Shown: one piece after another, positions 6,800 to 58,639 of the stretch
How positions within the stretch are numbered: position 1 is the first letter of the stretch
How the letters are laid out: each line of letters starts with the position of its first letter
Assembly (NCBI GenBank): GCA_963575745.1
Contig: CAUYUJ010000048.1
Coordinates: 1-64,000 of the forward strand
Source of the DNA: Prorocentrum cordatum
Taxonomy: Eukaryota
Length of the DNA: 64,000 nucleotides
Reading direction: 5' to 3'
The notes under the pieces: generated by a model
Seen by the model: only the letters and a program-made list of their open reading frames with translations
Told to the model about the DNA's origin: nothing
The model's database searches: none
Made by a program: the position numbers and the translations under genes

Positions 6800-9700
6800 C
6801 CGACCAGCTTCGCGCGCCTGCGCACCCCACAATGATATCCTCACCAGCCCATTCAGAAACGATCGCCAAGATTATTGAAGCCTCTAGGAGGTTATCTAGA
6901 GCCATGCTCGGCCAGAGGCTGTGGGAGGCTATCTTGAGCTATGCTGAGGTATCTTGGGCCCCTCAAGAAAACCATCACTCCACCCAGGGGCCCGAGGGGT
7001 GGGTCGGGGATACATGTTGTTACTGTTCCCCTGTCGTCCCTCCTTCGGACTCGCTCCCACGCGAAACACGATCCACATAGGGCCCTAGACTGGCTCGTTT
7101 CGAGGTTTCGCGAGGTCCAGGGTCTTGCAGGAAAGCTGGCTGCAGGACAGTCTGGGCCGTCATCCTGCACGAGTGCGCCTCGCGTGTCCAGGGCAGCGCG
7201 CTCGCCTCGTACTTCGCTTGCCGAGCTCCTCAGGGTATTGATTCGTCTTGAACGTCACGGAGGACCTTTCAAAACCCACTGGCCACAGCATATGAGCTTT
7301 TGGCATTCGGTCACATTTGTTGTAGCAGCCAGGTGTGCCTCCTATATGAGCACGGGGCAGTGGGAGTACATTATCCGGCAGTCGGAGGAGTACGTCGATT
7401 TTGTGCACTTCTTTGCGGCGGAAGCCCTGCCCAAGCCAGAAACCATCCAGAGGCAGTCGTGGAGAGAGTGGTGTGACCAAGCCCTGGCCACGGCTTCGGG
7501 CAAAGGGGTTTTTCGTTATCTTCGGGAAAAGCCTTTGCTGGATGTTGACGTCACCGAGGGGCCAGACGGTTACACGTCCCTTCTATCAGGGCACCTCGAT
7601 GGAGAATATGATCATTGGATGCGCACTTGGAAAGGGAGCCCCTCCCCATTGGAACAACCGTCCTGGCTTGAAGAGCTTCCCTCGATGGAGATCCCTGAGG
7701 CTGAAGACCCTGATGCCATTGCTTCTGCATCCAAGGCGTTCAAAAAGAACACGTGCCAACCAGACCGGGTACACCCCAGGCACTTCGCTCTACTATGCCG
7801 CCCGGCTCGGGCTGTCTTGGCGAAGATCTTCGTCCTCGTGGACGCTTTGGGGGTCCACCCGGTGCAGTTGCAGGAGGTCCTTATCCTCCTGGCCCGCAAA
7901 GCAAAGGGGCCAGGTCGGCGACCGATTGGCCACTTTCCTGCATTTCCTCGTCTGAAAGGGCGGCTTTTGGCACAGAGGCTCCGCTCCTGGGATGCTCAGA
8001 TGGGAGGGGGGCCAGCCTTCAGCATGGGGAAGGGGCGCTCGGTGGAGGACACTGTCTGGAGGCAGGCAGTGCGCGCCGAATCTGCAGCCACTTCCAGAAT
8101 GCACTTCCTGGCTTTGTTTTGGGATGTCAAACAATTTTACGAACATATTGTCCACAAGGGTCTTGCCGATCAATGTGGTGTCTCAGGTTTTCCCTGGTAT
8201 ATTTTGGCCCAGACTGTACGGTCATACCGATGGCCTCGGCGCATTTTCTTGGAAGGGATCCTGAGTGCACAGATGTGGCCGGATGAAGGTATCATAGCCG
8301 GTTCTGCCACAGCGACCTTCGAAGCGAAAGCATATTTGATCCCTCTGCTCCAGGATCCTGCTGTGTCTGTCACTTGGCAGGCGAGCGAGGGCACAGGCGC
8401 GACGGTACACATCGATGACATGGGCTTGTTCTCTTGGAACACCCTCATCGAAGACTGCGTGGACCACATGGTGACGCTTGCGACTCGCATGTACTCTGGT
8501 TTGGAGAGGGCAAATCTTTCCCTTGCTATGCGTAAGGTCTGCACCACTGCCTCGTCGGCCAAGTTGTTGGACGCGGCTCGGAAACGTCTCCCTGCCGAGC
8601 TCTTTGGTACTGGGGTTCACTCTGCGGCCAACCTTGGCATTGATTTCTCTGCAGGGAAGGCAAAAGGTACCAAGTGAGTATTGCGAGGCCAGCGGTGGAC
8701 CAAGGCACGGGGTCGCATCCGCAAGCTCCGCAACATCAAGCTGACCTCCCCCACTCGCAAGGGTAAGAGCATCAAGCCCAGGTTCTTCAAAGCGTCCGTG
8801 CAGTCTGGACTTGCGTTCGGGGGCAAGGTTCACGGCTATACCCCCTCGGAGCTCGTTCGCCTTCGTCAACATGTCAGGGGTCTGTCAGGGCACCCTGCAC
8901 CTGGGGCCCACGTTGATATCTGGTGGGCGTTTGCTCCGGAGCAGGACCCCATGGACCTGGGTGCTAGTACCCTCTGGCGGTATTGTTACGAGTGGTGGAT
9001 GTTGTCTGGCACGTCGCCACTCCAGCACAGGCATGCCGACATCATGACAGCCAAGGAGTTGCGCAATGCTTTCGAGAGGGCTGTTTTGCATCTCAGGAAC
9101 ACCAAGAAAACATCGTGGCTTGGAAAATCCCGCGGTCCTCTCACTGAGATGCTGCAGTGGGTCGCTCAGGCGGGATGGTCGTTCCAGGATGCTACCCATC
9201 TTGTGAGCCCAGAGGGGCAGGCCTACTCTCTCCTTGAGTTTCCTCCCCAGTGGCGCACCTCCCTTTTTAACGAAAGCATTAAATCTCGTAGTCTGCAGGC
9301 TGCTGTTATATCTAAGCTGGGCGTGAATCCTCACCCCTACGGGCAAGCAGTGCTCGATCAGGGAATGTGGAGAATCCAAATCTGCCGAGTGCTGAGGCAA
9401 GCCAGGAGGAAGCTCAGCACTCGGGAGATGTCGTGCGTGCATGGGCTCTTGGGGGATTGTTTAGTTACTGCCACCCTCTTGTCCAAGTGGGATTATAATA
9501 TTTCCCCGGCATGCCCGCACTGCAACGATGGTACTTTAGACACGCCGTTCCACCGACTCTGGGAGTGCCCTCGTTGCGGGCCCCTCCGAGACCAAGAGCT
9601 GGGGAAATTTGTCGAGCGGGCAGTTGCTGCAGGCCACACCCATCCGCTCTATGCGCATTTGTGGCTTGCTGCCCCTGATGTCGACCCCCCAATGGTAGAT

Positions 9701-10780
9701 TGGGGGTTTGCCTACAGAGATGGGCAGGGGCCGTGCGGTAAGTTCCAATTCGATCCCAGCCGGCCCACTTATGTTGATGGTTCGTGCCTCAATCCCGGGG
9801 TGGACATGCTGGAGAGAGGAGGTCTGGCGGCATGCCAGATAGATGATGATGGCAACCTCCTGCGCGCTGTTTCGTCTCCGCAGCCGCGGATTCTGCCCCA
9901 GCATGCTGTCCATTGTGAGCATTCTGGGCTTGTCATGGCCGGGCTGCATTCGGATCTGGCGCAGTCTCCAGAGTTTGCTGTGGACTGCAGGGCCCTCTTC
10001 AAAGGGATCACACAGCCGGCCTCTAGCCTGAAAGGCGCCACCTTGTTCAGCCACTACTGGAGGGTACTGGCCCATGCCACGCCAGGACCCTGGATTTCTT
10101 CATCACATGTCAAAGCTCATCGTAGCCTAGACGACGCTGTCTCTGAACAGGACCGTGTTCGTATCCTCGGCAACAAAATGGCCGACACTCTGGCCAAAGA
10201 GGCGGCGGGCAAGCATGACCTTGATCCCACCACCCGCTCAGACACGACGATTGCTCTTGAAGAGTTTCTGGAGCTCGTGATTAGTGCAGGGAGGGTGCTT
10301 GCTAGCTGGCCTCCTGCGCGTGAGTACTTTGGCCCCCTGTCCAAGGTCCTTCGGCCCCGCCCTCCTCCCCGCCCTTTTGTCTCCTCCCACACCCCCACCT
10401 GGACAGGCAAGGGCTATCGTTGCACCACGTGTTTAAAACGCATCGCCCCTCACTGCAGAAGGCAGTGCTCTCAAGAATATCCTCATGCCCTCACAGATGC
10501 AATCAATCAGCGCCGTGCCCTTCACCATTCCCTCGATATGGGATGGATTGATGGGAGCAGCATGCCAATTATTTATTGCACACTGTGTGGGGGTTACAGC
10601 ATGGGGAGGGGTACAAAGCTCCAACAGCCCTGCCTCAGTGAAGACCACCGCAGGTGTCAGAATGAGAGGGGTTCTCTGGCACCGGGGCCCCCCCGGGTCA
10701 GCAGCGAGCTCCGCAAGCTCCGCCGGGGCGAAGTGCCTGGGACCACCCTCACCTTCTCCAGAGTCATCCACTTGGGGTGA
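6800..10780 (+). mobile_element. 5'-truncated LINE related to the 49-56 kb element (RT, zinc finger, RNase H, zinc finger)
   Basis: Same downstream domain order and a weakly similar post-APE linker. No APE or ORF1 is recognisable upstream. The 5' boundary is approximate and the 3' UTR probably extends to about 11250. Confidence 0.88.
6941..10780 (+). pseudogene. LINE ORF2 remnant split by one in-frame TGA at 8675-8677
   Basis: ORFs 6941-8677 and 8681-10780 are in the same frame. RT motifs RRPIG, WDVKQFYE, GIIAGS, HIDD (8408-8419), LGID. Zinc finger CPHC..HRLWEC. RNase H motifs YVDGS, CEH, VDC, HVKAH, GNKMAD. C-terminal CTLCG..C. Confidence 0.88.
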
Positions 10781-48970: not shown

Positions 48971-49183
48971 CTCGGGCCTCGTCTTACGCAGGCATTTTCT
49001 TAGTGCCAGGCGTCGTCGCCGCCCGCCGTCCGCCGCCCGCCGTCCGCCGCCCGTCGTCGGCGAGGACGGCGAAGACACCGACGGGATCAGGCGGTTCGGA
49101 CAGTCCAAAGTACATCCCCGTGGGTCTCCTCCTCCTCTTTCACCTCCTCCTCCTCCTCATCTTCCCATCTTCATGATTTTCTC

Positions 49184-49205
49184 TCCGTAGCCATTTTGGC
49201 TCAAG
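49184..49205 (+). other. Full-length dinoflagellate spliced leader (DinoSL) at the 5' end of a LINE
   Basis: TCCGTAGCCATTTTGGCTCAAG matches the DinoSL consensus DCCGTAGCCATTTTGGCTCAAG at 22/22. It is followed by GCTAT rather than a GT donor, so it does not look like an SL RNA gene. Confidence 0.95.
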
Positions 49206-49349
49206 GCTATGCTGTTGCGGGCTGAGCCCGCATTGGCTTTCACGGATACCGCTAGTCCGCGGCAGTGCGAGGGCTCTTGAGCCCGATCAGTTCTTTGCCC
49301 GCACCATAGGGGCGTACGGGCCGCCCGCTTCTCTCACCACGTTCGTGGC

Positions 49350-50510
49350 ATGGGGAGCAATGCGCGCAAGGAGGTGCTCCTTGGCCCCCGTTCCCCCCCG
49401 TGGGGATGTGGGCGCTGCGGGAGAGACGGGAACTGGGCGTCGCGGCTCGTCTGCCGCTGCGGCGCCAAGGCCCCCGAGAGGATCGCGAAGGCCGCCAAGG
49501 CGGAGCACGAGAAGATCGTTGCTGGCAAGGGAGGCGGCCAGGAGCAGCAGTGGCCCCGTGGAGGCGGCGCCAACGGCTCCAGCAAGGACGGCGAGAAGGG
49601 CTTGGCCAAGCAGCTTGCCGACATTAAGAAGCAGCTGGCCCAGCTCCAGTCCACGACGACCACGAAGCAGCCGCAGCCGGCTGCCGCAGCCGACGAGGAG
49701 GACCCTGAGGCCAAGGCTCTGGAGGATGCCAGGCAGTCCCTGGAGACGTTTCGCAAGGTGGCCCAGAGCAAGTCCTCGTCGGAAGCTGCCAAGAAGTTCG
49801 CGAATGAGGAGATCGCGAGGCTGCAGGAGAAGATCACGCAGGCACGGTCTCCCGAGCTCCAGCAGCTCTCCATCACCCAGAAGATCACGCGCGCCAAGGC
49901 CTCGGCGGCTAGCTGGCGCGAGAAGGCTTCGCAGAAGGAGGAGGAGCTCAAGAACATTCAGGGCAAGCTTCAGCAGGAGATTGACAAGTTCAAGGCCGCT
50001 GCAGACGAAGCTCAGGCCCGAGTTGAGGAGCTACAACGGCAAGCAGCTGAACAGGTCGCCAAGCTTGCAGGAGCGGCAGCCGCGGCCCCATCGGCACCTG
50101 CGGCGGCAAGGGCTCCACCTTCGTATGAGCTTGACCCCGAAGCCGTCTTGGCCCAGGGCAGTGAGTTCCAGGATTGGTACCGCAAGTTTCAGGCAGAGAC
50201 CCAGGGGGCCCAAGGTCAGATCCTCATGGAGATGCTGCGGGCCCAGGCTCCTTCTGCTGCTCAGCACGGTGGCCTGCCTCCTTCAGGTGCTGGCGCAGGC
50301 GCCGCTGTTCACGTCGACCAGCCCGCTGGAGACGACGACATCGACATGGAGCTGCTCGGCGCGGACGGGTTCGAGGCCAAGTCAGAGGAGCTGCGCAAGG
50401 CCACGGTGGAGCTCCGCCAGGCCAGGCCCGAGGACCAGGAGGTTCTCAAGCGGAAGGTCGCGGCAGCGGCAGCGGCCCTCGGCCTCGGCAAGCGACAGAA
50501 GAGGCTTTGA
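49350..50510 (+). CDS. LINE ORF1 (386 aa): N-terminal Cys-rich zinc finger plus long coiled coil
   Basis: WGCGRCGRDGNWASRLVCRCG is a RanBP2-like finger. K/E/Q/A-rich helical segments and GC3-rich codons follow, and the ORF lies directly upstream of ORF2. Confidence 0.85.
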   Translation: MGSNARKEVLLGPRSPPWGCGRCGRDGNWASRLVCRCGAKAPERIAKAAKAEHEKIVAGKGGGQEQQWPRGGGANGSSKDGEKGLAKQLADIKKQLAQLQSTTTTKQPQPAAAADEEDPEAKALEDARQSLETFRKVAQSKSSSEAAKKFANEEIARLQEKITQARSPELQQLSITQKITRAKASAASWREKASQKEEELKNIQGKLQQEIDKFKAAADEAQARVEELQRQAAEQVAKLAGAAAAAPSAPAAARAPPSYELDPEAVLAQGSEFQDWYRKFQAETQGAQGQILMEMLRAQAPSAAQHGGLPPSGAGAGAAVHVDQPAGDDDIDMELLGADGFEAKSEELRKATVELRQARPEDQEVLKRKVAAAAAALGLGKRQKRL

Positions 50511-53500
50511 CCGCTCCAAGGTCAAGGACCGCAAGGACAAGACTTGGAGATTCTGGTCTGCGAACGCCAACTCCTGGAGCTCGCTCCAGACGGCCATCGA
50601 CTGGCAGAGGGGTTGGGGTGACGCCACCAGGCCACACGTTCTTTTGTGTCAAGAACATCGGCTCAAAGATGCATCACGTATTCGTTCGGCTGCAGGGTGG
50701 CTTCGGTCTCGGGGCTACCATGGTGCCTTCGGCGCGGCTCGCGCCACAGGGTCTCAGGCCTCTGAGAGCTCGGCGGGAGTCCTCACCGCGGTGTCATCCT
50801 ACGTGGAGTTCGCGGGGCTCGGCCTCCAGAGGTTCGGGGTGGACGCCGCTTTCGGCCCGCGCCTCAAGATAGTCAGGGCTAACATGATTTTCCCTCACGG
50901 TATGTACCTCATGTCGGTCTACGGCCACGTTGAGAAGGTGGCCTACTCTGCGTTCTGGGACATGATGTCGCAGCTTGGCGGCAAGTTGCGCAGGTCCAGA
51001 ATCCCTTGGGTCATCGGTGGTGATTTCAATCAGGACCCGTTCGACGAGAGGATCCTGAAGTGGGCCGACATGCTCCAGGCCACAGTCATCGCCACGCCTG
51101 GGCCGACGTGCTTCTCAGCCCCGGAGGGCTCGAAGATAGATTTCTTTATTGTCAGCCAGGGGCTCGCCTCGTGCGTTTCGGATGTCAGGGCCCTCTACGG
51201 CGCTCCAATGTCGCCGCACGTAGCCATCAGCATGCAGCTCACGGGACCCTCACTGGACATTCCTGTGCACGTTCGTCAGACGTGGAAGGTCTTCCCCACT
51301 GAGCGTCCCATAGGCTGCCTCAACCACCCCATCGAGCTCACCTGGTCTTGGGAGCCAGGAGCAGTACCGTCGATGGGGCTGGAGGACGCTTGGAAGGAGT
51401 GGATCGCGAACTTGGAGGAGGAGCTATGCTGGCAGTTCGACCTTGTGGGCAGGGCTGCACAACCCTACAAGGGCAGGTCTGGCGGCTTCGTGAGGAAGGC
51501 CGTTCCACTGGCAGAGGTCATGAGGAAGGCCCCTGTGTCAGGCAGCGGGGAGGTCATGCGGACATGGAGGTCCCTCGCCTCGATCATCCGACGTGCACAA
51601 GGGCTCCGATGTGGCTTGTTGGAGGCAGGCAAGGAGATGGTGGCCAGGGCGGCAGCGCCGCCAGACGACACGCTGAGCGTCAGGCTGCCCGACTACGCCC
51701 AGGGCCACACGTTCGGGCAGATGGCGAATTGGGCGACGAGCTCGGTGGGTTCGGCTACCGCGCCTCAGGCTACGACGGCCTCCCTCGCCTGGGCCCACTC
51801 GCTCCGACCTGCGAAGGCCGAGACGGCGCCTGCCCCCGCGGGCCCTCTCGGAGTGGAAGGGCCCCGCCCAGCGGGCGAGGCGCCGCATCGGCTGGAGGAG
51901 GAGCTGGTGGGTTGCACGGCGCCTACCACGCAGATCGGTTCGTGTACTTCGATTGCGCCCTCGTCGGGGACCTCGGCTTCCCTCGCCTGGGCCCACTTGC
52001 TCCGACCTGAGAAGGCTGAGACTCCGAACGCCTCCGCACGGCCCCCCCTCTTCGAGGGCGCGCCCTGCCCAGCAGGCAGTCTCGGAGTTTCGCTGGAGGA
52101 GGAGAAGCGGGGTGCCAGGGCGGCAACTTCGCGAATGCCAATGACTTCGTGTTCTTTGGATGGACAGCAGGTGCTGCTCGGGTTGCTTGAAGAACTTGAT
52201 GCCATCGACGGGGCGTCCTTGCACGGCTTTGACACCATCGGGCTAGGCTACCACCAGATTCGGCACACGATTGAGCTAGGTGGGGAGGACCTGGACACGC
52301 TCTGCGTCAAAGTCAGCGACGCGGCCCAGGAGGCCTCGGCAGCGGCTGCCAAAGCGGAACTCCACGAATGGCGTGAGTGGGCCCAGGCCTCAGTCAAGGC
52401 TGGGGGGCGCAAGGCGCACAGGTTCATCAAGCAGTCGCCCCAGGCCTCTGGGCCCAAGGCCCCCGAGGGTTGGGCTTTGCAGGGAGATGGTGCAGTCGAT
52501 GCCATGGTGGAGGAGTGGTCGCAGTACTGGGATGACGCCAAGCAGGACATCTCGGACCAGCAGCACACGATGGCGAACAACTCCGACCTTCCCCGCCCCA
52601 CACTTGATAGAGTTCGACAGGCCTGCCGTTCGTTCGGTCACAACGTTGGGCTTGGTGTGGATTGCGTCAACCCACGTTCGTTTTTGTTGTTAGATGACCA
52701 GTTCATCCTCAGGCTGATCGACGTCATGGTGATGTGGGAGGCGGACCCACGCTTGCCTGAGCGATGGCCGACAATCATGGTCTTCCTCTCCAAGCCAGAC
52801 GGATCTGGGGTCAGGCCCATCGCCCTCATATGCTCCATCCTCAGGGTCTGGGGCAAGGTCAGGCGCGACATGGCCAAGGAGTGGGAAGAGCAGCACGCCT
52901 CCCCTGTGTTTTGGGGGGCCAAGGATCGTGAGTGTGATCGGGCAGGTTGGATCCATCAGATGCTCGCTCACTACGCAGCAGTTCGAGGACTGGACACGGC
53001 CACATTGGCCACGGACCTGGACAAGTTCTACGAGAGGGTTTGCCATTTCGTGCTGTTCAATGAGGGGGAGGGATGTGGGTTCCCAGTCGAGCTCCTCAGG
53101 GCAGCCTGCGGCCTCTATGCTGGCCCCAGGGCAATCAGCTTTCGCGGATGTGTCTCAGGCGTTATCAGGGCGGTGGGCACGGTGCTGGCTGGTTGTTCAC
53201 TAGCCACATCGCTGGCGAGAGTCTTGGTCTACAGGCTACTCACGACGTTGGCGGCAGCTCACCCATCAGTACACATTCGGAACGTAATCGACGACATCAG
53301 CGCGCAGTCCCTGGGCACGGGCTTCCACGTCGTCTCCCAGCTGGGCGAGGTCGGGAGCAAGCTCATTGGGGGCCTGCGCGATCTGCGCCTCGTGCTGTCC
53401 GAGAAAAAATGCAAGTTCCTGGCGTCGTCCAAAAAAGTTGCACATGGATTGCTGAGTAGGTGGAACATGTCCTTCGAACGCCGAGGAGTCATCAGGAGCC

Positions 53501-55788
53501 TCGGCACGGATTGGCAAGTGAGTTCGGCTAGGTTGGCCCCCATAGCCTCCAAGAGGGTTGGGCTCTGCATCAAGCGCTCTGCGAGGCTCCGTAGTCTTAG
53601 GAGGGCGGGCGCCCCTGTTGGCCACATTCAGCGTGCGGGCCCCCAAGCCTCCGCTCTCTGGGGCTGTGCTGTTAGGGGGCTCCCGTGGTCTTCCCTCAAC
53701 AGAGTCCGTCAGCAGGCCCTTTTGGCCCTGGCTCCCATGAAGCGGGGCGCCTCGGTGGGTCTCAAGCTGCACTCCTTTAGGCTCGGTAGGAAGGTCGACC
53801 CTGTGCTTTTGTATTTCCGCCAGGTCGTCTTTGAATGGGCCAGGGCCCTCTGGGAGGCCACCCCCAAGCTAGAGATCCTGCAGGCCACCTTTGAAGATGC
53901 CGTCCGTGTGCTGGCCAACACAAGCAGACCCTGGTCTCGGGCGACTTCGCCCGCTCACGTGTACGTTCTGGCGTGTGGTGACTTGGGCTGGACAGCACAC
54001 TCGGCACGTTCTGTCACTCTTCAGACAGGAGAGCAGATTGATCTGCTCCGCCTGGCGCCGCGCGTGGTGGCCGACCTGGCAGGAAAGGCTGCCAGGGAGA
54101 TGTCGGATTACCGCGCCCTCAGCTCTCGTGCTGGATCCAGCTCCTGGTGCCGTCCGATTTTCTGGCAGCCAGTCGAGGGTCTCCTAAGCAGGACGACCGC
54201 CACCTGGACCCGAGCTCATCAGAACTCGTTTAGGGCGGTTGTCTCGGGCACCCATTGGCCTCAGGAGAGGCTGCATCGGCACGGCCTCGCCGCGTCGCCG
54301 TTGTGTTTGCTGTGTAAAGGGGAGCCTGGGACCGTGTTTCACCGTCGGTTCGTCTGTGAAGCTTGGGAAGAGGACCGCAGGCAATTTCTGTCGGACGAAT
54401 GCCGACAGGCTGCACGCCTCGTTCGCTCCTTGGGCGGAGATGCGGAGCTCTTTGCTAATGGCCTCTTCCCTTCTCCTCGTGAGCTCGTCCCTCCTCCGCT
54501 CCGCTCGAGTGAGTGTCCGATTATGTGGATTCGCAAGCCTGAAGACGGGATGCTCAGAGGCCGCCTCTTTACAGACGGGTCGGCCCTGCACCCGTCCGAC
54601 GAGTCCCTCCGACGGGCTGGATGGAGTGTGGTGCAGGTCGACTCGGAGGGTTCTCTAGTCGCTGCTGCCTTCGGCCCTGTCCCCTGGGATCTCTCGCCCT
54701 TCCAGAGGGCGCGAGACGGGGAGGACTACGCTTTTTATATGTTGCCGCAGCTCGCGATCCCGCATGAGGTCGAAGGCATTTGGTCGGACTGCGAGGGCTC
54801 GGTGACAGCTGCTCGCGCTCGGGTGGCGTCTGTCTCCGCACAGAGCCCGCAGGCCCATATGTGGTCTCGGATCCATGCGGCGTTTGAGGAAGGGCTCCCT
54901 GTCTTCAAAACGAAAGCCCACCTCTCGGAGACTGACCTGGCCATGGGCACGTCCACGCCGTGGGAGCGGAAAGCGAATGCTATCGCCGATGTCCTGGCCA
55001 AGCGGGGAGCGACCCAGCACCCGTCGGTCCAGCAGGCCGCCAGTCAGGTCCGTGGTCTCAGCTTGTTGGGTCGGGAGGTGGGCCAGTGGGCTGGGCGGCA
55101 AGAGGTGCTTATGTCTCAAAGGGGCTGGGTGGACTCCCAGGGGCTCCCTGAGGTCTCCGCGGCGCCTAGGGGCAGTAGTAGGCCTGCTCGGCAGCCCGCC
55201 TGTCCCCGCGCTTGGGTGCACTTTAGAGCGGTCCTCTCGGATGTCTCCCAGGGCCCCCAGGACCCCGAGTTAGGAGTGTTGGTGCAGCTTACAGGGCACT
55301 GCCTTCGAGCCACCAGTGTGTTCAACGAGGCTGGAGCCAGCGTGATCGCTGGCCACAGGCTCATCTGTTGTGTGGCGTGCGGGGCCTTCGCTTGGGGCAA
55401 TGTGCGGGCCCTCTCCCAGGCTTGCCATCCCGCCCAAGCGGGCAAGGGACTGAGGCAGCAGAAGGCACGCCTGCTGGCACGCAAGTTCCCCAGGTGGCTT
55501 TCAAAGTATTCGGGCTGGTCGCTGGGCGAGTTGGAGATCCCGACCCCGTCTGATCTCCTGTCTCTCGCCTCCACTATCCTAGCTGCGCGCCCGAGGCCCG
55601 CAGCGCCGTCTGCCCATCCCGTTTTCCGTGCAGGACCGCCGTGGCGCCCCAGCTGGACACCTGGTGTCCTGCTCTCGCGCTTCGGCGTCTCTCTCGTGAC
55701 CCTCCCGTTCTGGGAGGCCCAGGCGCGCGCCGCCCTCGGCGAGGGGCAGGAGGCGGGCGGGGCCCCCGAGGATTGCGAGGAGGTGTAA
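50506..55788 (+). CDS. LINE ORF2 polyprotein: APE endonuclease, reverse transcriptase, zinc finger, RNase H, C-terminal Cys motif
   Basis: APE motifs WSANANS, LCQEH, SAGV, SVYG, IGGDFN, KIDFF, SPH (about 50545-51240). RT motifs RPIAL, DLDKFYE, LAGCSLA, VIDD (53284-53295). Zinc finger CLLC..HRRFVC. RNase H motifs TDGS, GED, SDC, KAH, NAIAD (about 54565-55010). C-terminal CVACG..C. The start is placed at the putative frameshift site; the track lists this frame from 49345. Confidence 0.93.
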   Translation, partial: FDRSKVKDRKDKTWRFWSANANSWSSLQTAIDWQRGWGDATRPHVLLCQEHRLKDASRIRSAAGWLRSRGYHGAFGAARATGSQASESSAGVLTAVSSYVEFAGLGLQRFGVDAAFGPRLKIVRANMIFPHGMYLMSVYGHVEKVAYSAFWDMMSQLGGKLRRSRIPWVIGGDFNQDPFDERILKWADMLQATVIATPGPTCFSAPEGSKIDFFIVSQGLASCVSDVRALYGAPMSPHVAISMQLTGPSLDIPVHVRQTWKVFPTERPIGCLNHPIELTWSWEPGAVPSMGLEDAWKEWIANLEEELCWQFDLVGRAAQPYKGRSGGFVRKAVPLAEVMRKAPVSGSGEVMRTWRSLASIIRRAQGLRCGLLEAGKEMVARAAAPPDDTLSVRLPDYAQGHTFGQMANWATSSVGSATAPQATTASLAWAHSLRPAKAETAPAPAGPLGVEGPRPAGEAPHRLEEELVGCTAPTTQIGSCTSIAPSSGTSASLAWAHLLRPEKAETPNASARPPLFEGAPCPAGSLGVSLEEEKRGARAATSRMPMTSCSLDGQQVLLGLLEELDAIDGASLHGFDTIGLGYHQIRHTIELGGEDLDTLCVKVSDAAQEASAAAAKAELHEWREWAQASVKAGGRKAHRFIKQSPQASGPKAPEGWALQGDGAVDAMVEEWSQYWDDAKQDISDQQHTMANNSDLPRPTLDRVRQACRSFGHNVGLGVDCVNPRSFLLLDDQFILRLIDVMVMWEADPRLPERWPTIMVFLSKPDGSGVRPIALICSILRVWGKVRRDMAKEWEEQHASPVFWGAKDRECDRAGWIHQMLAHYAAVRGLDTATLATDLDKFYERVCHFVLFNEGEGCGFPVELLRAACGLYAGPRAISFRGCVSGVIRAVGTVLAGCSLATSLARVLVYRLLTTLAAAHPSVHIRNVIDDISAQSLGTGFHVVSQLGEVGSKLIGGLRDLRLVLSEKKCKFLASSKKVAHGLLSRWNMSFERRGVIRSLGTDWQVSSARLAPIASKRVGLCIKRSARLRSLRRAGAPVGHIQRAGPQASALWGCAVRGLPWSSLNRVRQQALLALAPMKRGASVGLKLHSFRLGRKVDPVLLYFRQVVFEWARALWEATPKLEILQATFEDAVRVLANTSRPWSRATSPAHVYVLACGDLGWTAHSARSVTLQTGEQIDLLRLAPRVVADLAGKAAREMSDYRALSSRAGSSSWCRPIFWQPVEGLLSRTTATWTRAHQNSFRAVVSGTHWPQERLHRHGLAASPLCLLCKGEPGTVFHRRFVCEAWEEDRRQFLSDECRQAARLVRSLGGDAELFANGLFPSPRELVPPPLRSSECPIMWIRKPEDGMLRGRLFTDGSALHPSDESLRRAGWSVVQVDSEGSLVAAAFGPVPWDLSPFQRARDGEDYAFYMLPQLAIPHEVEGIWSDCEGSVTAARARVASVSAQSPQAHMWSRIHAAFEEGLPVFKTKAHLSETDLAMGTSTPWERKANAIADVLAKRGATQHPSVQQAASQVRGLSLLGREVGQWAGRQEVLMSQRGWVDSQGLPEVSAAPRGSSRPARQPACPRAWVHFRAVLSDVSQGPQDPELGVLVQLTGHCLRATSVFNEAGASVIAGHRLICCVACGAFAWGNVRALSQACHPAQAGKGLRQQKARLLARKFPRWLSKYSGWSLGELEIPTPSDLLSLASTILAARPRPAAPSAHPVFRAGPPWRPSWTPGVLLSRFGVSLVTLPFWEAQARAALGEGQEAGGAPEDCEEV

Positions 55789-56634
55789 CTCGTTTTCGGT
55801 TTCATTTCGGCGGTCGGCGGCTTGGACGTCTTCCGCTCTCGTCTCATCTCACCTCTCCTCTCCTCCTCCTCCTCCTCCTCCTCCTCCTCCTCCTCCTCCT
55901 TCCTCCTCCTCCCCCTCCTTCTCCTCCCCTCCCCCCTTCCTCCTCCTCCTCCTCCTCCTCGACCTCCTCGACCTCCTCGACCTCCTTCTCTCCTCCTCCT
56001 CCTCCTCCTCCTCCTCCTCCTCCTCCTCCTCCTCCTCCTCCTCCTCCTCTTTTCTTTCCCACAATCTCAGAGGAGGCAAAGCTACCCTCCCCCCATGCCT
56101 TTCCGTCGTTTTCCCCTCTTGGGCCTCTTGGGATGCCCTCGTCACTACTGCTGGATTCGCCTCGAAATCCTGGTCAGAACGCACCCGAGGAGAGGTCCAG
56201 GGAGAAGCGGTATCGGTACCTTTTGGTCTCTCCAGATTATGTTGATTTGTCTTGGCTGTGACGGCAGGTGATCCTGCCATCGCCGTGCGCAGAGTTGGGC
56301 ATTCCGAGGCCCTTCAGAGCCTCGTCGTCGCCAGGAGCTGAGTTTTTTACTCGAGCACATCACGCGCGTTATGTGGCGTCCAACCCACCCACCCACCCAG
56401 TAGATAGCACAGCGTTCGCCGCTGCACCCATCCCCGTTGCAGCAGCGCCTGCTGCTCAGCGCACAGGTTTGCTGCTCGCAGTGCGCGCGCAGTGTGCCTG
56501 CCGTGAGCGCGGGCACGTGCTTGTGTGGTAAGTTAGAGGTACGTGGGGCGCGCAGGCTGCTGTGGCACCCACACGTGCGCGGTGGCGCACTCACGTTGGA
56601 AGGGACGAGCAGTTCGGCGTGCCTCCTCCCCGTA

Positions 56635-56860
56635 GGAGGAGGAGGAGGAGGAGGAGGAGGAGGAGGAGGAGGAGGAGGAGGAGGAGGAGGAGGAGGGGGA
56701 GGAGGAGGAGAGGAGGGTAGGAGGAGGAGGAGGAGGAGGAGGAGGAGGAGGAGGAGGAGGAGGAGGAGGAGGAGGAGGAGGAGGAGGAGGAGGAGGAGGA
56801 GGAGGAGGAGGAGGAGGAGGAGGAGGGGGAGGAGGAGGAGGAATTGGAGGAGGAGGAGGA
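56635..56860. repeat. (GGA)n microsatellite
   Basis: Seen directly. Other GGA/CCT tracts lie at about 45660-45790, 55850-56050, 60800-60940, 61830-62060 and 62770-63310. Confidence 0.95.
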
Positions 56861-58639
56861 GAATCTGTCGATCTTTCTTGGCTGTGGTGGCGGGTGACGG
56901 CGCCGCCGCCTTTGCGCAGAGCTCGGTACTCCGAGGTCCTTTCCGCGCCCCTGCCCCGTCGGGGCCGTGGGCGCCTCCTCCTCGTCGTCATGAGCGTTTT
57001 TTGTCCCTGCTCGAGCACGTGGCGCGCGTTCTGTGGCGTCCAACCCACCCACCAGTGTGCGTCGCCTGATCTCTGGAGCCCAGCCCGCGCGCAAACAGAA
57101 GGAAGCCTCTCTCCCCCGAGGTCCTGGCCACTCCATGGTTTCTCGAGCCGGGCGCTTTTCGCTCGGCTTCGTGCCGCGGGCGACCGACAGATCGATCCGG
57201 CTCGAAGAGTGATGCAGAAAGAGGGGGTCCAGGGGTCAGGCTGTGATTGTTTGCGATGCTGCAGTGTTTTCGCAGCGTCAGATCTCCGGGTCCGACCTCG
57301 CTCGGCCCGTGCGGTTCGAGCTCCCTCGGGGGCGCGCCGCGGGGTCGCGCCCGCCCTCGACTTCCGCGCCTCCCTCCCCCCCCTCTCCTCTCCGCTCCTT
57401 CGGTCGCCTCCGCCCCGTGGCCCCGCTCGGTCAGTGAGCCTCTTCGTGGTCGTCGTCGGCGCCTTCGGCTTCGCCGTCGTCGCCCTCGCAGCATTCGGGT
57501 GCACTTTTTTTAGTTTTTGGTGGGGTGCGGGATCCCCCTGTTTTTTAGTGGTTCGGAGTTGTGTGTTTCGGATGCTATCCGTTACCCGAGTTCTCCAGAG
57601 ATCTGCATCGTTGTGTTCTTCTCTCTCTCTCTCTCTCATTCGGATGCAACTCATGGGAGGTCAGATTCAGCATCGGTGCTGGTATATCGGTGATCGGAAA
57701 CCAGCCTAAGCCGGAGTCGTCTGGTTTCGAAGGAACCCTCTCAGAGTACAGTCAAGTTTTTTCGAGCTTCGAGGTCGTGATCTTGACAGGGACTCCATGA
57801 GGATCTGCTCTGCTCTGCTCCTCCTCCTCCTCCTCCTCCTCCTCCTGCACCCTTCTTCTTCGCCCCCGTCTCCTACTTTCGGGCTCCTTCTCTTGGGCTT
57901 CTTGTGATTCCTGATGCCTGATGGCTGGAAAGAGCGTCGTTCGTAGGCCCCCCCCTGGGGCCCGTCGGCCCTGTGGGCTTGAGCAAACCAGGGTCAGGCG
58001 ACCCCTGGAGCACACCCCCAGGAGCCACCGGCAGTCTGGTGGGTGCAAAGGCAGGACCGACAGGCAGGGGGGAAGGGGGACGAAGACCAAGGGGACGCAT
58101 CTCAAGGGGGAGAAGGGCGGTGGCAGTGGCGGCAGTCTGTGAAGGTGGAGGAGTGAGTTTTGGCGACAGAGGTAGCTTCGTCTGTGCGCTGCGGTCGGGA
58201 GGCAGAGGAGCAGAACACCAAGGTCAGAAATCTCCAGGGGGAGAACGAGTGGTGGCAGTGGCGGCAGTGCGCGTGAAGGTGGAGCAACGACGTTTGGCAA
58301 CAGCGGTGCAGCGGAAACCCATGCCACGAAGCACCGCGCTTGCCCCCAGGGTGCCCTGGGTTTCTTGGGCCTCGATGGCTCTGCGATGGAAGGCGTGACG
58401 TTCCCCCACCAACAAAGTCGATGGACGTCCTGGGGCCTCAGGGTTGGACTGTTCTCGTGGCAGGTTTCGTGTGGGCTGGCCTCCACTGCAGCTCTGCCTG
58501 TGCGCTGCGGCCTCCCTGCTCCCAGCCAGGTTTAAGTCGGGCCTGTCCCTCTACAGGAGGAAACTTCCAAAGTGGTAAAACATTATCCTGGCGAAGGACC
58601 CAACCATAAGCAATTGTTCGTAACGCGTTGTGGGTGCCG

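Follow-up and report, generated by a model that had tools for sequence, protein, structure and literature searches.

How does a long interspersed nuclear element (LINE) translate a second open reading frame (ORF2) that has no start codon near its beginning? The translation of LINE ORF2 is a long-standing question, and it is raised in an explicit form by an element on the forward strand of a 64,000-nucleotide (nt) stretch of Prorocentrum cordatum DNA (contig CAUYUJ010000048.1, positions 1 to 64,000; the whole of this stretch is "the window" below). ORF1 of this element ends at a TGA codon, and its ORF2, in which an APE endonuclease is followed by a reverse transcriptase (RT) as in APE-type LINEs, sets out from that same point in the +1 frame. 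A preliminary description of this DNA proposed that a programmed +1 frameshift on the ORF1 stop makes an ORF1-ORF2 fusion. Judged from sequence, we consider such a frameshift at CUU_UGA_C plausible and treat it as a candidate with a probability of about 0.35. The features on which the argument turns are these:

49350..50510, + strand: ORF1, 386 codons plus TGA (ATG 49350, TGA 50508-50510)
50505..50511, + strand: candidate +1 shift site CTT TGA C, made up of the final sense codon, the stop and the base after it; read directly
50506..55788, + strand: ORF2, 1760 codons plus TAA (TAA 55786-55788), with APE, RT and RNase H-like parts
50545..51201, + strand: APE endonuclease domain (Pfam PF03372, Exo_endo_phos, residues 40-232, E 3.3e-07)
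52792..53433, + strand: RT core (Pfam PF00078, residues 763-976, E 0.001, 19.2 bits, which is below the 29.6 cut-off)

The end of ORF1 reads AGG (50502-50504), CTT (50505-50507), TGA (50508-50510) and then C (50511), just as first described, and the ORF2 frame crosses the junction as GGC TTT GAC and stays open to the TAA at 55786-55788, so that its +1 register is also confirmed. The T that follows CTT allows the P-site codon to re-pair in the +1 frame (CUU to UUU), and the A site is expected to be slow, being a stop codon in a weak context (TGA followed by C at 50511), as at known shifty stops. UGA-C is the weakest stop context in eukaryotes. The string CTTTGAC is not rare in the window (four occurrences on the + strand and three on the − strand), and with seven occurrences on both strands only its placement is informative. 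CTT makes up 23 of the 2146 codons of the element (1.07%) and 23 of its 202 Leu codons; from this usage we estimate that CTT would directly precede TGA-C at a +1 junction by chance in ~0.2–2% of cases, depending on how broadly "shifty" is defined.

ATG codons in the ORF2 frame lie at 49360, 49726, 49804 and 50125, and the next one is at 50884. The nearest upstream ATG (50125) is 381 nt inside ORF1, and the stretch from the junction to the APE domain has none, in agreement with the preliminary description. The methionine encoded at 50884 is ORF2 residue 127, past both the NANSW motif (residue 20) and the QEH motif (residue 49) of the endonuclease. A profile search of solved structures places the start of the APE fold at WRF, ORF2 residues 14-16 (13–14 codons past the junction, where ~13 had been claimed); in alignment A2, profile positions 49-51 correspond to residue 10 of the endonuclease chains of human L1 and to residue 2 of exonuclease III from E. 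coli, and L1 ORF2p chains were matched as well, while a single-sequence search of the same solved structures gave no match. Since the fold starts at residues 14-16 and Met 50884 lies behind the APE motifs, ribosomes must enter the ORF2 frame before ~50545. The downstream +1 ORF thus holds an essential part and has no start of its own, as is expected of an ORF reached through a shifty stop.

The candidate mechanism would be as follows: a few of the ribosomes that reach the ORF1 stop would slip one base forward while peptidyl-tRNA-Leu occupies the P-site CUU and the A site faces the weak stop UGA-C; the tRNA-Leu would re-pair with UUU (with a G:U pair at the first position), GAC would be decoded next, and translation would continue through ORF2 to give a fusion reading ...KRQKRL-DRSK... 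at the junction. This fusion would be a minor product next to plentiful free ORF1 protein, like Gag-Pol next to Gag. The sequence shows the shift site and both reading frames; the slip, its efficiency and the fusion as the active form of the protein are inferred.

CUU_U with UGA(C) is described as the conserved shift site of bacterial release factor 2 (RF2, gene prfB), and Ty1 shifts at CUU AGG C, both as stated in the preliminary description (PMC5009743, a review of frameshifting). The intrinsic shiftiness of CUU_AGG_C (Ty1) and GCG_UGA_C (antizyme) in yeast is given there as 43% and 37%, respectively, and the GCG_UGA_C figure is said to reflect the greater effectiveness of a stop codon. By analogy, CUU_U plus UGA_C may be seen as uniting elements of the RF2, Ty1 and antizyme sites.

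Related copies and distant relatives

The preliminary description suggested that conservation of the +1 register be checked in diverged family members. Four public runs were aligned to the element at a likeness of at least 80%, and 175 contigs could be placed on it, 28 pieces of which are listed individually (147 more are not itemised); 40 of the 180 sequence differences are visible to us, and 33 of these lie inside ORF1 (which has ~100 in all). All 12 indel rows fall at 49208-49290 in the 5' leader, and none falls in 49291-51300 in any of the 175 contigs, several of which are 6–12% diverged from the element yet indel-free in the coding part. No frame-breaking change was seen in the first 800 nt of ORF2 among the aligned contigs. 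None of the public sets listed as containing this sequence was an RNA set, which does not bear on whether the element is expressed. Three of the 28 listed pieces, from three different studies, bridge the junction without gaps:

50249-50817: X1 bridging piece, 18 differences, 0 gaps
50461-50589: X2 bridging piece, 5 differences, 0 gaps
50447-50648: X6 bridging piece, 1 difference, 0 gaps

A protein of 250 amino acids (P0005, from a 999-nt contig) is 88% identical to ORF1 over all 250 residues and ends on the identical LGLGKRQKRL. The visible differences within ORF1 are concentrated on third codon positions (21 of 33, p 3.5e-4), and the changed codons comprise 17 synonymous and 13 non-synonymous cases in the ORF1 frame. 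The bias toward third positions indicates that lineages carrying this junction diverged under selection on ORF1. The register is thus common to the related copies, and purifying selection appears to have acted in the lineages that have the junction. The indel-free register, the same ORF1 end in P0005 and the selection on ORF1 together argue that the junction is probably a feature of the family and not a private or dead indel. Close relatives that bear the junction were not found in the protein collections searched: ORF2 residues 1-330 as query matched only two distant proteins, ORF1 matched P0005 alone, and a junction-centred query in the ORF2 frame gave no match at 178-569 amino acids.

More distant relatives are plentiful. 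An exhaustive representative search with the junction-to-APE part returned 940 proteins at E 1e-3 or better, and the closest among those listed (P0006) is 42% identical; one distant relative, P0003, bears both PF00078 and PF00075. For 38 of the 150 proteins listed, the N-terminus was inspected. A single-ORF layout, in which an N-terminal zinc finger and coiled coil are joined to the APE domain, is present in P0143, whose source is a transcriptome-derived set named Amphidinium carterae, and in P0040, P0050 and P0052, which are gene models named Prorocentrum cordatum. The fused relatives and those with an AUG at the start of the APE domain (below) are 25–34% identical to ORF2 in the APE part and so belong to other families. 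Judged by these proteins, a fusion would seem to be viable in the clade, and recoding devices would seem to be common there; the route used by the present family is not thereby told, and the fused relatives argue for a viable fusion as much as for the junction being an indel. The preliminary description had named several findings that would count against a programmed shift. Within the family we see no variable register, no ORF2 AUG near the junction and no fused ORF, and the window has no second spliced leader; distant relatives of other families, however, do have a fused ORF or an AUG at the start of the APE domain.

The frameshift and its rivals

We rank the frameshift first because the exact site stands where ORF2-homologous sequence begins and because the fused relatives make its product plausible. 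What stood of the original proposal is the exact site, the two frames and the lack of a local start; the slip itself is a candidate, and no significant 3' structure was found beside the site. The only structure proposed in this region is the following:

50514..50549, + strand: weak candidate hairpin CUCCAAG...CUUGGAG, beginning 3 nt past the stop; its fold is not significant

Several observations weigh against a frameshift. We know of no LINE with an experimentally shown +1 frameshift. The downstream fold is no better than that of shuffled sequences (z −1.74, 11 of 200 shuffles equal), and the fold across the shift site (z +0.83) likewise supports no stimulatory structure. The related copies give the register of the junction and not the letters of the heptamer: none of the 40 visible differences (of 180) lies within 50370-50817, and the five differences of the 50461-50589 contig are outside the visible set. 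At the nucleotide level, no relatives were found in metagenome, genome or viral contigs with ORF2 residues 1-400 as query, in metagenome contigs with an ORF1/P0005 alignment, or in genome contigs with an alignment of P0157, P0010 and P0007. The layouts of the distant relatives are varied, so that a frameshift is by no means required in this clade. For example, P0017, P0020, P0012, P0024 and P0010 have an AUG right at the start of the APE domain, and 12 of 157 relatives have a long N-terminal part followed by a 2A-like [RIV]GEAxNPGP motif upstream of it (three of them with HPGP). In addition, the single frame of the fused gene models may come from predicted introns, and in alignment A2 the first APE motif is missing from P0143. 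Finally, the same RNA offers a second route to ORF2, from the AUG at 49360. Ty1-type +1 sites are said to require no stimulatory element (PMC5009743).

The 2A-like motifs mentioned above (in P0060, P0078, P0089, P0100, P0104, P0110, P0111, P0119, P0133, P0137, P0149 and P0153) suggest that LINE relatives found in marine and dinoflagellate data encode ribosome-skipping peptides.

The second route depends on features of the 5' part of the element:

49184..49205, + strand: 22-nt dinoflagellate spliced leader (TCCGTAGCCATTTTGGCTCAAG), which forms the 5' end of the element; read directly
49209..49280, + strand: upstream ORF (uORF) in the ORF1 frame, 23 codons and a TGA (ATG 49209, the first AUG of the RNA; stop 49278-49280)
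49360..50505, + strand: ORF2-frame stretch over ORF1, 382 codons, Arg 25%, Ser 17%, Pro 12%, isoelectric point 12

According to this explanation two AUGs would be used on one RNA through leaky or bidirectional scanning, ORF1 being started at 49350 and an ORF2 protein at 49360, and CTT TGA C would be a coincidence. The open ORF2 frame across ORF1 and the AUG at 49360, which together make a route no less concrete than the heptamer, were overlooked in the preliminary description. The ORF2 frame is free of stops from 49177 (before the spliced leader) to 55788, through the whole of ORF1, and the AUGs past the uORF come in the order 49350 (ORF1), 49360 (ORF2 frame), 49406 (third frame), and 49726, 49804 and 50125 (all ORF2 frame). 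The AUG at 49360 follows that of ORF1 by 10 nt and opens 2142 stop-free codons, which is the arrangement expected of a pair of nearby AUGs that are both used. The +1 frame of ORF1 has 0 stops, where 3.90 are expected from shuffles of codon order (P(0) 0.0093) and 3.66 from synonymous resampling (P(0) 0.0147; 3000 of each); its +2 frame has 10 stops where 13.8–15.3 are expected from the same shuffles, and in ORF2 itself the +1 frame meets 31 stops over 1761 codons. The 33 visible ORF1 differences create no stop in the ORF2 frame, a test of little power. The abstracts of PMC9743702 and PMC6294492 provide the precedent, closely spaced out-of-frame AUG pairs both being used in yeast and in plant viruses. 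On the other hand, the overlapping frame shows no visible constraint at the protein level (4 synonymous and 24 non-synonymous changes), its ATGs at 49804 and 50125 are missing in related copies, and the P of ~0.01 for the open frame is post hoc and was obtained for an ORF that is rich in GC and has few hydrophobic residues. With G at −3 and G at +4, the ORF1 AUG is moreover in a context that counts as strong by the vertebrate rule. The coincidence needed to dismiss the frameshift (~0.2–2%) and that needed to dismiss the AUG pair (~1% times the chance of a well-placed AUG) are of similar size. We regard this second route as doubtful, though it survives best among the alternatives.

In the classic bicistronic layout of LINEs the ORF1 stop adjoins the start of the ORF2-homologous region, as it does here, and termination-dependent, AUG-independent reinitiation of the kind proposed for human L1 would then yield a separate ORF2 protein from a non-AUG codon within a dozen codons of the junction. 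Stop and start are coupled at UAAUG in SART1 (according to passages of PMC3894237), and reinitiation is the alternative named for Paramecium LINEs in passages of PMC5405496. No ORF2-frame AUG lies within 378 nt on either side of the present junction, however, and codons 50506-50553 include no CUG, GUG, UUG or ACG, the only near-cognates being AAG and AGA. Reinitiation after a long ORF1 is argued to be improbable in PMC3894237, and it would explain neither the CTT TGA C heptamer nor the open frame. We consider it unlikely.

Least probable of the four is that there is no dedicated mechanism, i.e., that a 1-nt change in a fused or AUG-bearing ancestor left an ORF2 that is barely or not translated, that the copy was moved in trans by related LINEs, and that it is intact because it is young. 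Distant relatives with one fused ORF or an AUG at the start of the APE domain would fit such an origin, as would the presence of one copy in the window and of few close relatives in the protein collections. Against this, the register is common to all of the aligned contigs, some of them 6–12% diverged, with 2 kb of coding sequence free of indels as opposed to 12 indel rows in the leader; the ORF1 differences are concentrated on third positions; and ORF2 is intact over 1760 codons, a frame that neutral decay of trans-mobilised copies should have broken. The evidence for selection makes this explanation unlikely.

Other candidates were tried and rejected. Readthrough of the TGA would meet the next stop of the ORF1 frame ~35 codons on and never join ORF2; a separate trans-spliced ORF2 mRNA does not agree with the window's only spliced leader being at the 5' end of the element, with a leader sequence that has no AUG and with no AUG before 50884; a frame-restoring intron is ruled out by inference, as a retrotransposed copy is made from processed RNA; a 2A peptide would need an [NH]PGP, which is absent from every forward frame of the element; and SART1-type coupling of stop and start would need an ORF2-frame ATG, which is absent within 378 nt of the junction.

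Comparison with known recoding systems

The candidate site is closest to that of bacterial prfB, which has the identical heptamer, a Leu-tRNA that moves from CUU to UUU, UGA-C in the A site and an essential product in the +1 frame (PMC5009743). It differs in that prfB is bacterial and needs an upstream Shine-Dalgarno-like stimulator and the RF2 level, whereas the present element lives in a eukaryotic host, its 386-codon ORF1 has a function of its own, and the fold analysis revealed no stimulator. The retroelement Ty1 produces a Gag-Pol-like fusion through a +1 shift on CUU (PMC5009743), but it is a long terminal repeat (LTR) element and not a LINE, and it has a hungry AGG codon in place of the stop. 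Antizyme (GCG_UGA_C or UCC_UGA) offers a UGA-C shifty stop in a eukaryote (PMC5009743), but there a polyamine sensor and a pseudoknot are present, and again no LINE is involved.

Among LINEs, the nearest case is that of the Paramecium non-LTR groups 1–3. Like the present element they are LINEs of an alveolate and carry ORF2 in the +1 frame; a sister group has an in-frame stop. For groups 1 and 2, Guerin et al. (2017, PMC5405496) proposed a +1 frameshift or reinitiation, and for group 3 they proposed readthrough. The passages concerned name no shift site and offer the mechanism as a proposal only, and these LINEs belong to another clade and to ciliates, which have a different genetic code. Human L1 and silkworm SART1 share with the element an ORF1 followed by an APE-RT ORF2 on one RNA, with ORF2 made rarely and unconventionally; L1, however, has an inter-ORF spacer and a dispensable ORF2 AUG, and SART1 has the overlapping UAAUG, whereas here neither a spacer nor an AUG is present, and the two frames meet directly at a slippery stop. 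The pea enation mosaic virus 2 p26/p27 pair and the yeast reporters resemble the element in their out-of-frame AUG pair, which here is 10 nt apart with the second AUG opening a long ORF (PMC6294492 and PMC9743702); they differ in that the overlap would here be 1.1 kb long without visible constraint on the second-frame protein.

A review of non-LTR translation (PMC3894237) mentions frameshifting 0 times, and the passages of PMC5009743 that cover HeT-A, TART and L1 describe no LINE with a defined +1 site and call the mechanism of L1 ORF2 translation unknown and novel. Our full-text literature search turned up no paper that describes frameshifting between ORF1 and ORF2 in a dinoflagellate LINE. 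It is possible, and we put this forward tentatively, that the present family makes its endonuclease and RT only as an ORF1-ORF2 fusion by way of the prfB-type CUU_UGA_C. A defined +1 site would then be known from a LINE for the first time, as one of several recoding solutions of dinoflagellate LINEs: a fused ORF, an in-frame stop, a 2A-like peptide and a +1 shifty stop.

The element is a clean test case, having two explicit and mutually exclusive routes to ORF2 on one RNA. If the frameshift is true, Gag-Pol-style recoding extends to LINEs and a first handle on dinoflagellate recoding is gained; if the AUG pair is used instead, the polymerase carries a 1.1-kb overprinted leader. Dinoflagellate gene expression leans heavily on post-transcriptional control, according to the abstract of bioRxiv 10.1101/2024.02.20.581179.

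Layout and setting of the element

The remaining features of the element are as follows:

49401..49466, + strand: ORF1 zinc knuckle (residues 18-39), with a BLASTP match to P0143
55846..56050, + strand: (CTC)n microsatellite tail, preceded by a 3' untranslated region of ~60 nt; read directly

The upstream ORF1 with its zinc knuckle and the 3' repeat tail are likewise those of an APE-type (L1-like) LINE, and the element is a young dinoflagellate LINE of the APE-RT-RNase H kind, capped by a spliced leader. The spliced leader TCCGTAGCCATTTTGGCTCAAG at 49184-49205 is the sole copy within the window and matches DCCGUAGCCAUUUUGGCUCAAG as given in the abstract of PMC2606063; this exact 22-nt dinoflagellate spliced leader fits a dinoflagellate host genome. 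The element itself is also present as a single copy in the window.

ORF1 is composed of a CCCC zinc knuckle, an Ala/Glu/Gln/Lys-rich middle that resembles a coiled coil, and a basic C-terminus, KRQKRL. The zinc knuckle, which we take to be RanBP2-like by its consensus, is 60.9% identical over 23 amino acids to residues 12-34 of P0143 (E 7.6e-4, BLASTP against a 155-protein database). A Pfam search of ORF1 gave no family above threshold and no zf-RanBP match, and the weak coiled-coil-type matches that it gave were below threshold. The TDGS-type stretch of ORF2 is presumably the RNase H part. The linker between the APE and RT domains of ORF2 contains a 49-nt direct repeat (51776-51824 and 51974-52022, 92% identical) that encodes SLAWAH(S/L)LRP(A/E)KAE twice.

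The leader at 49184-49321 is much commoner in the public runs than the remainder of the element; for example, the depth in run X2 is 1167 and 582 in two leader bins and ~19 over ORF1. This abundance and the fact that all 12 indel rows fall in the leader make it seem to be common to many other elements or transcripts. Within the leader, at 49217-49231, GCGGGC-TGA-GCCCGC forms a perfect hairpin.

At 6938-10780 the window has another LINE-like RT stretch, a distant one that is 23.5% identical to ORF2 residues 607-1505 by tblastn; an in-frame stop at 8675-8677 divides it into frames of 6938-8677 and 8678-10780, as in a decayed or stop-interrupted ORF. This stretch (at 7415-10216) offers no usable ORF1/ORF2 junction and was called decayed.

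The window is GC-rich throughout (53–68% per 2-kb bin). The (CTC)n tail of the element is ~200 nt long, its 5' flank (49130-49170) is likewise CTC-rich, and a long (GGA)n run lies 600 nt further downstream (56630-56860). The CTC-rich surroundings and the (CTC)n end of the element hint at microsatellite-directed insertion. Downstream of the element, a 44-nt repeat (56350-56393 and 57010-57053, 91% identical) lies in look-alike segments that flank the (GGA)n run.

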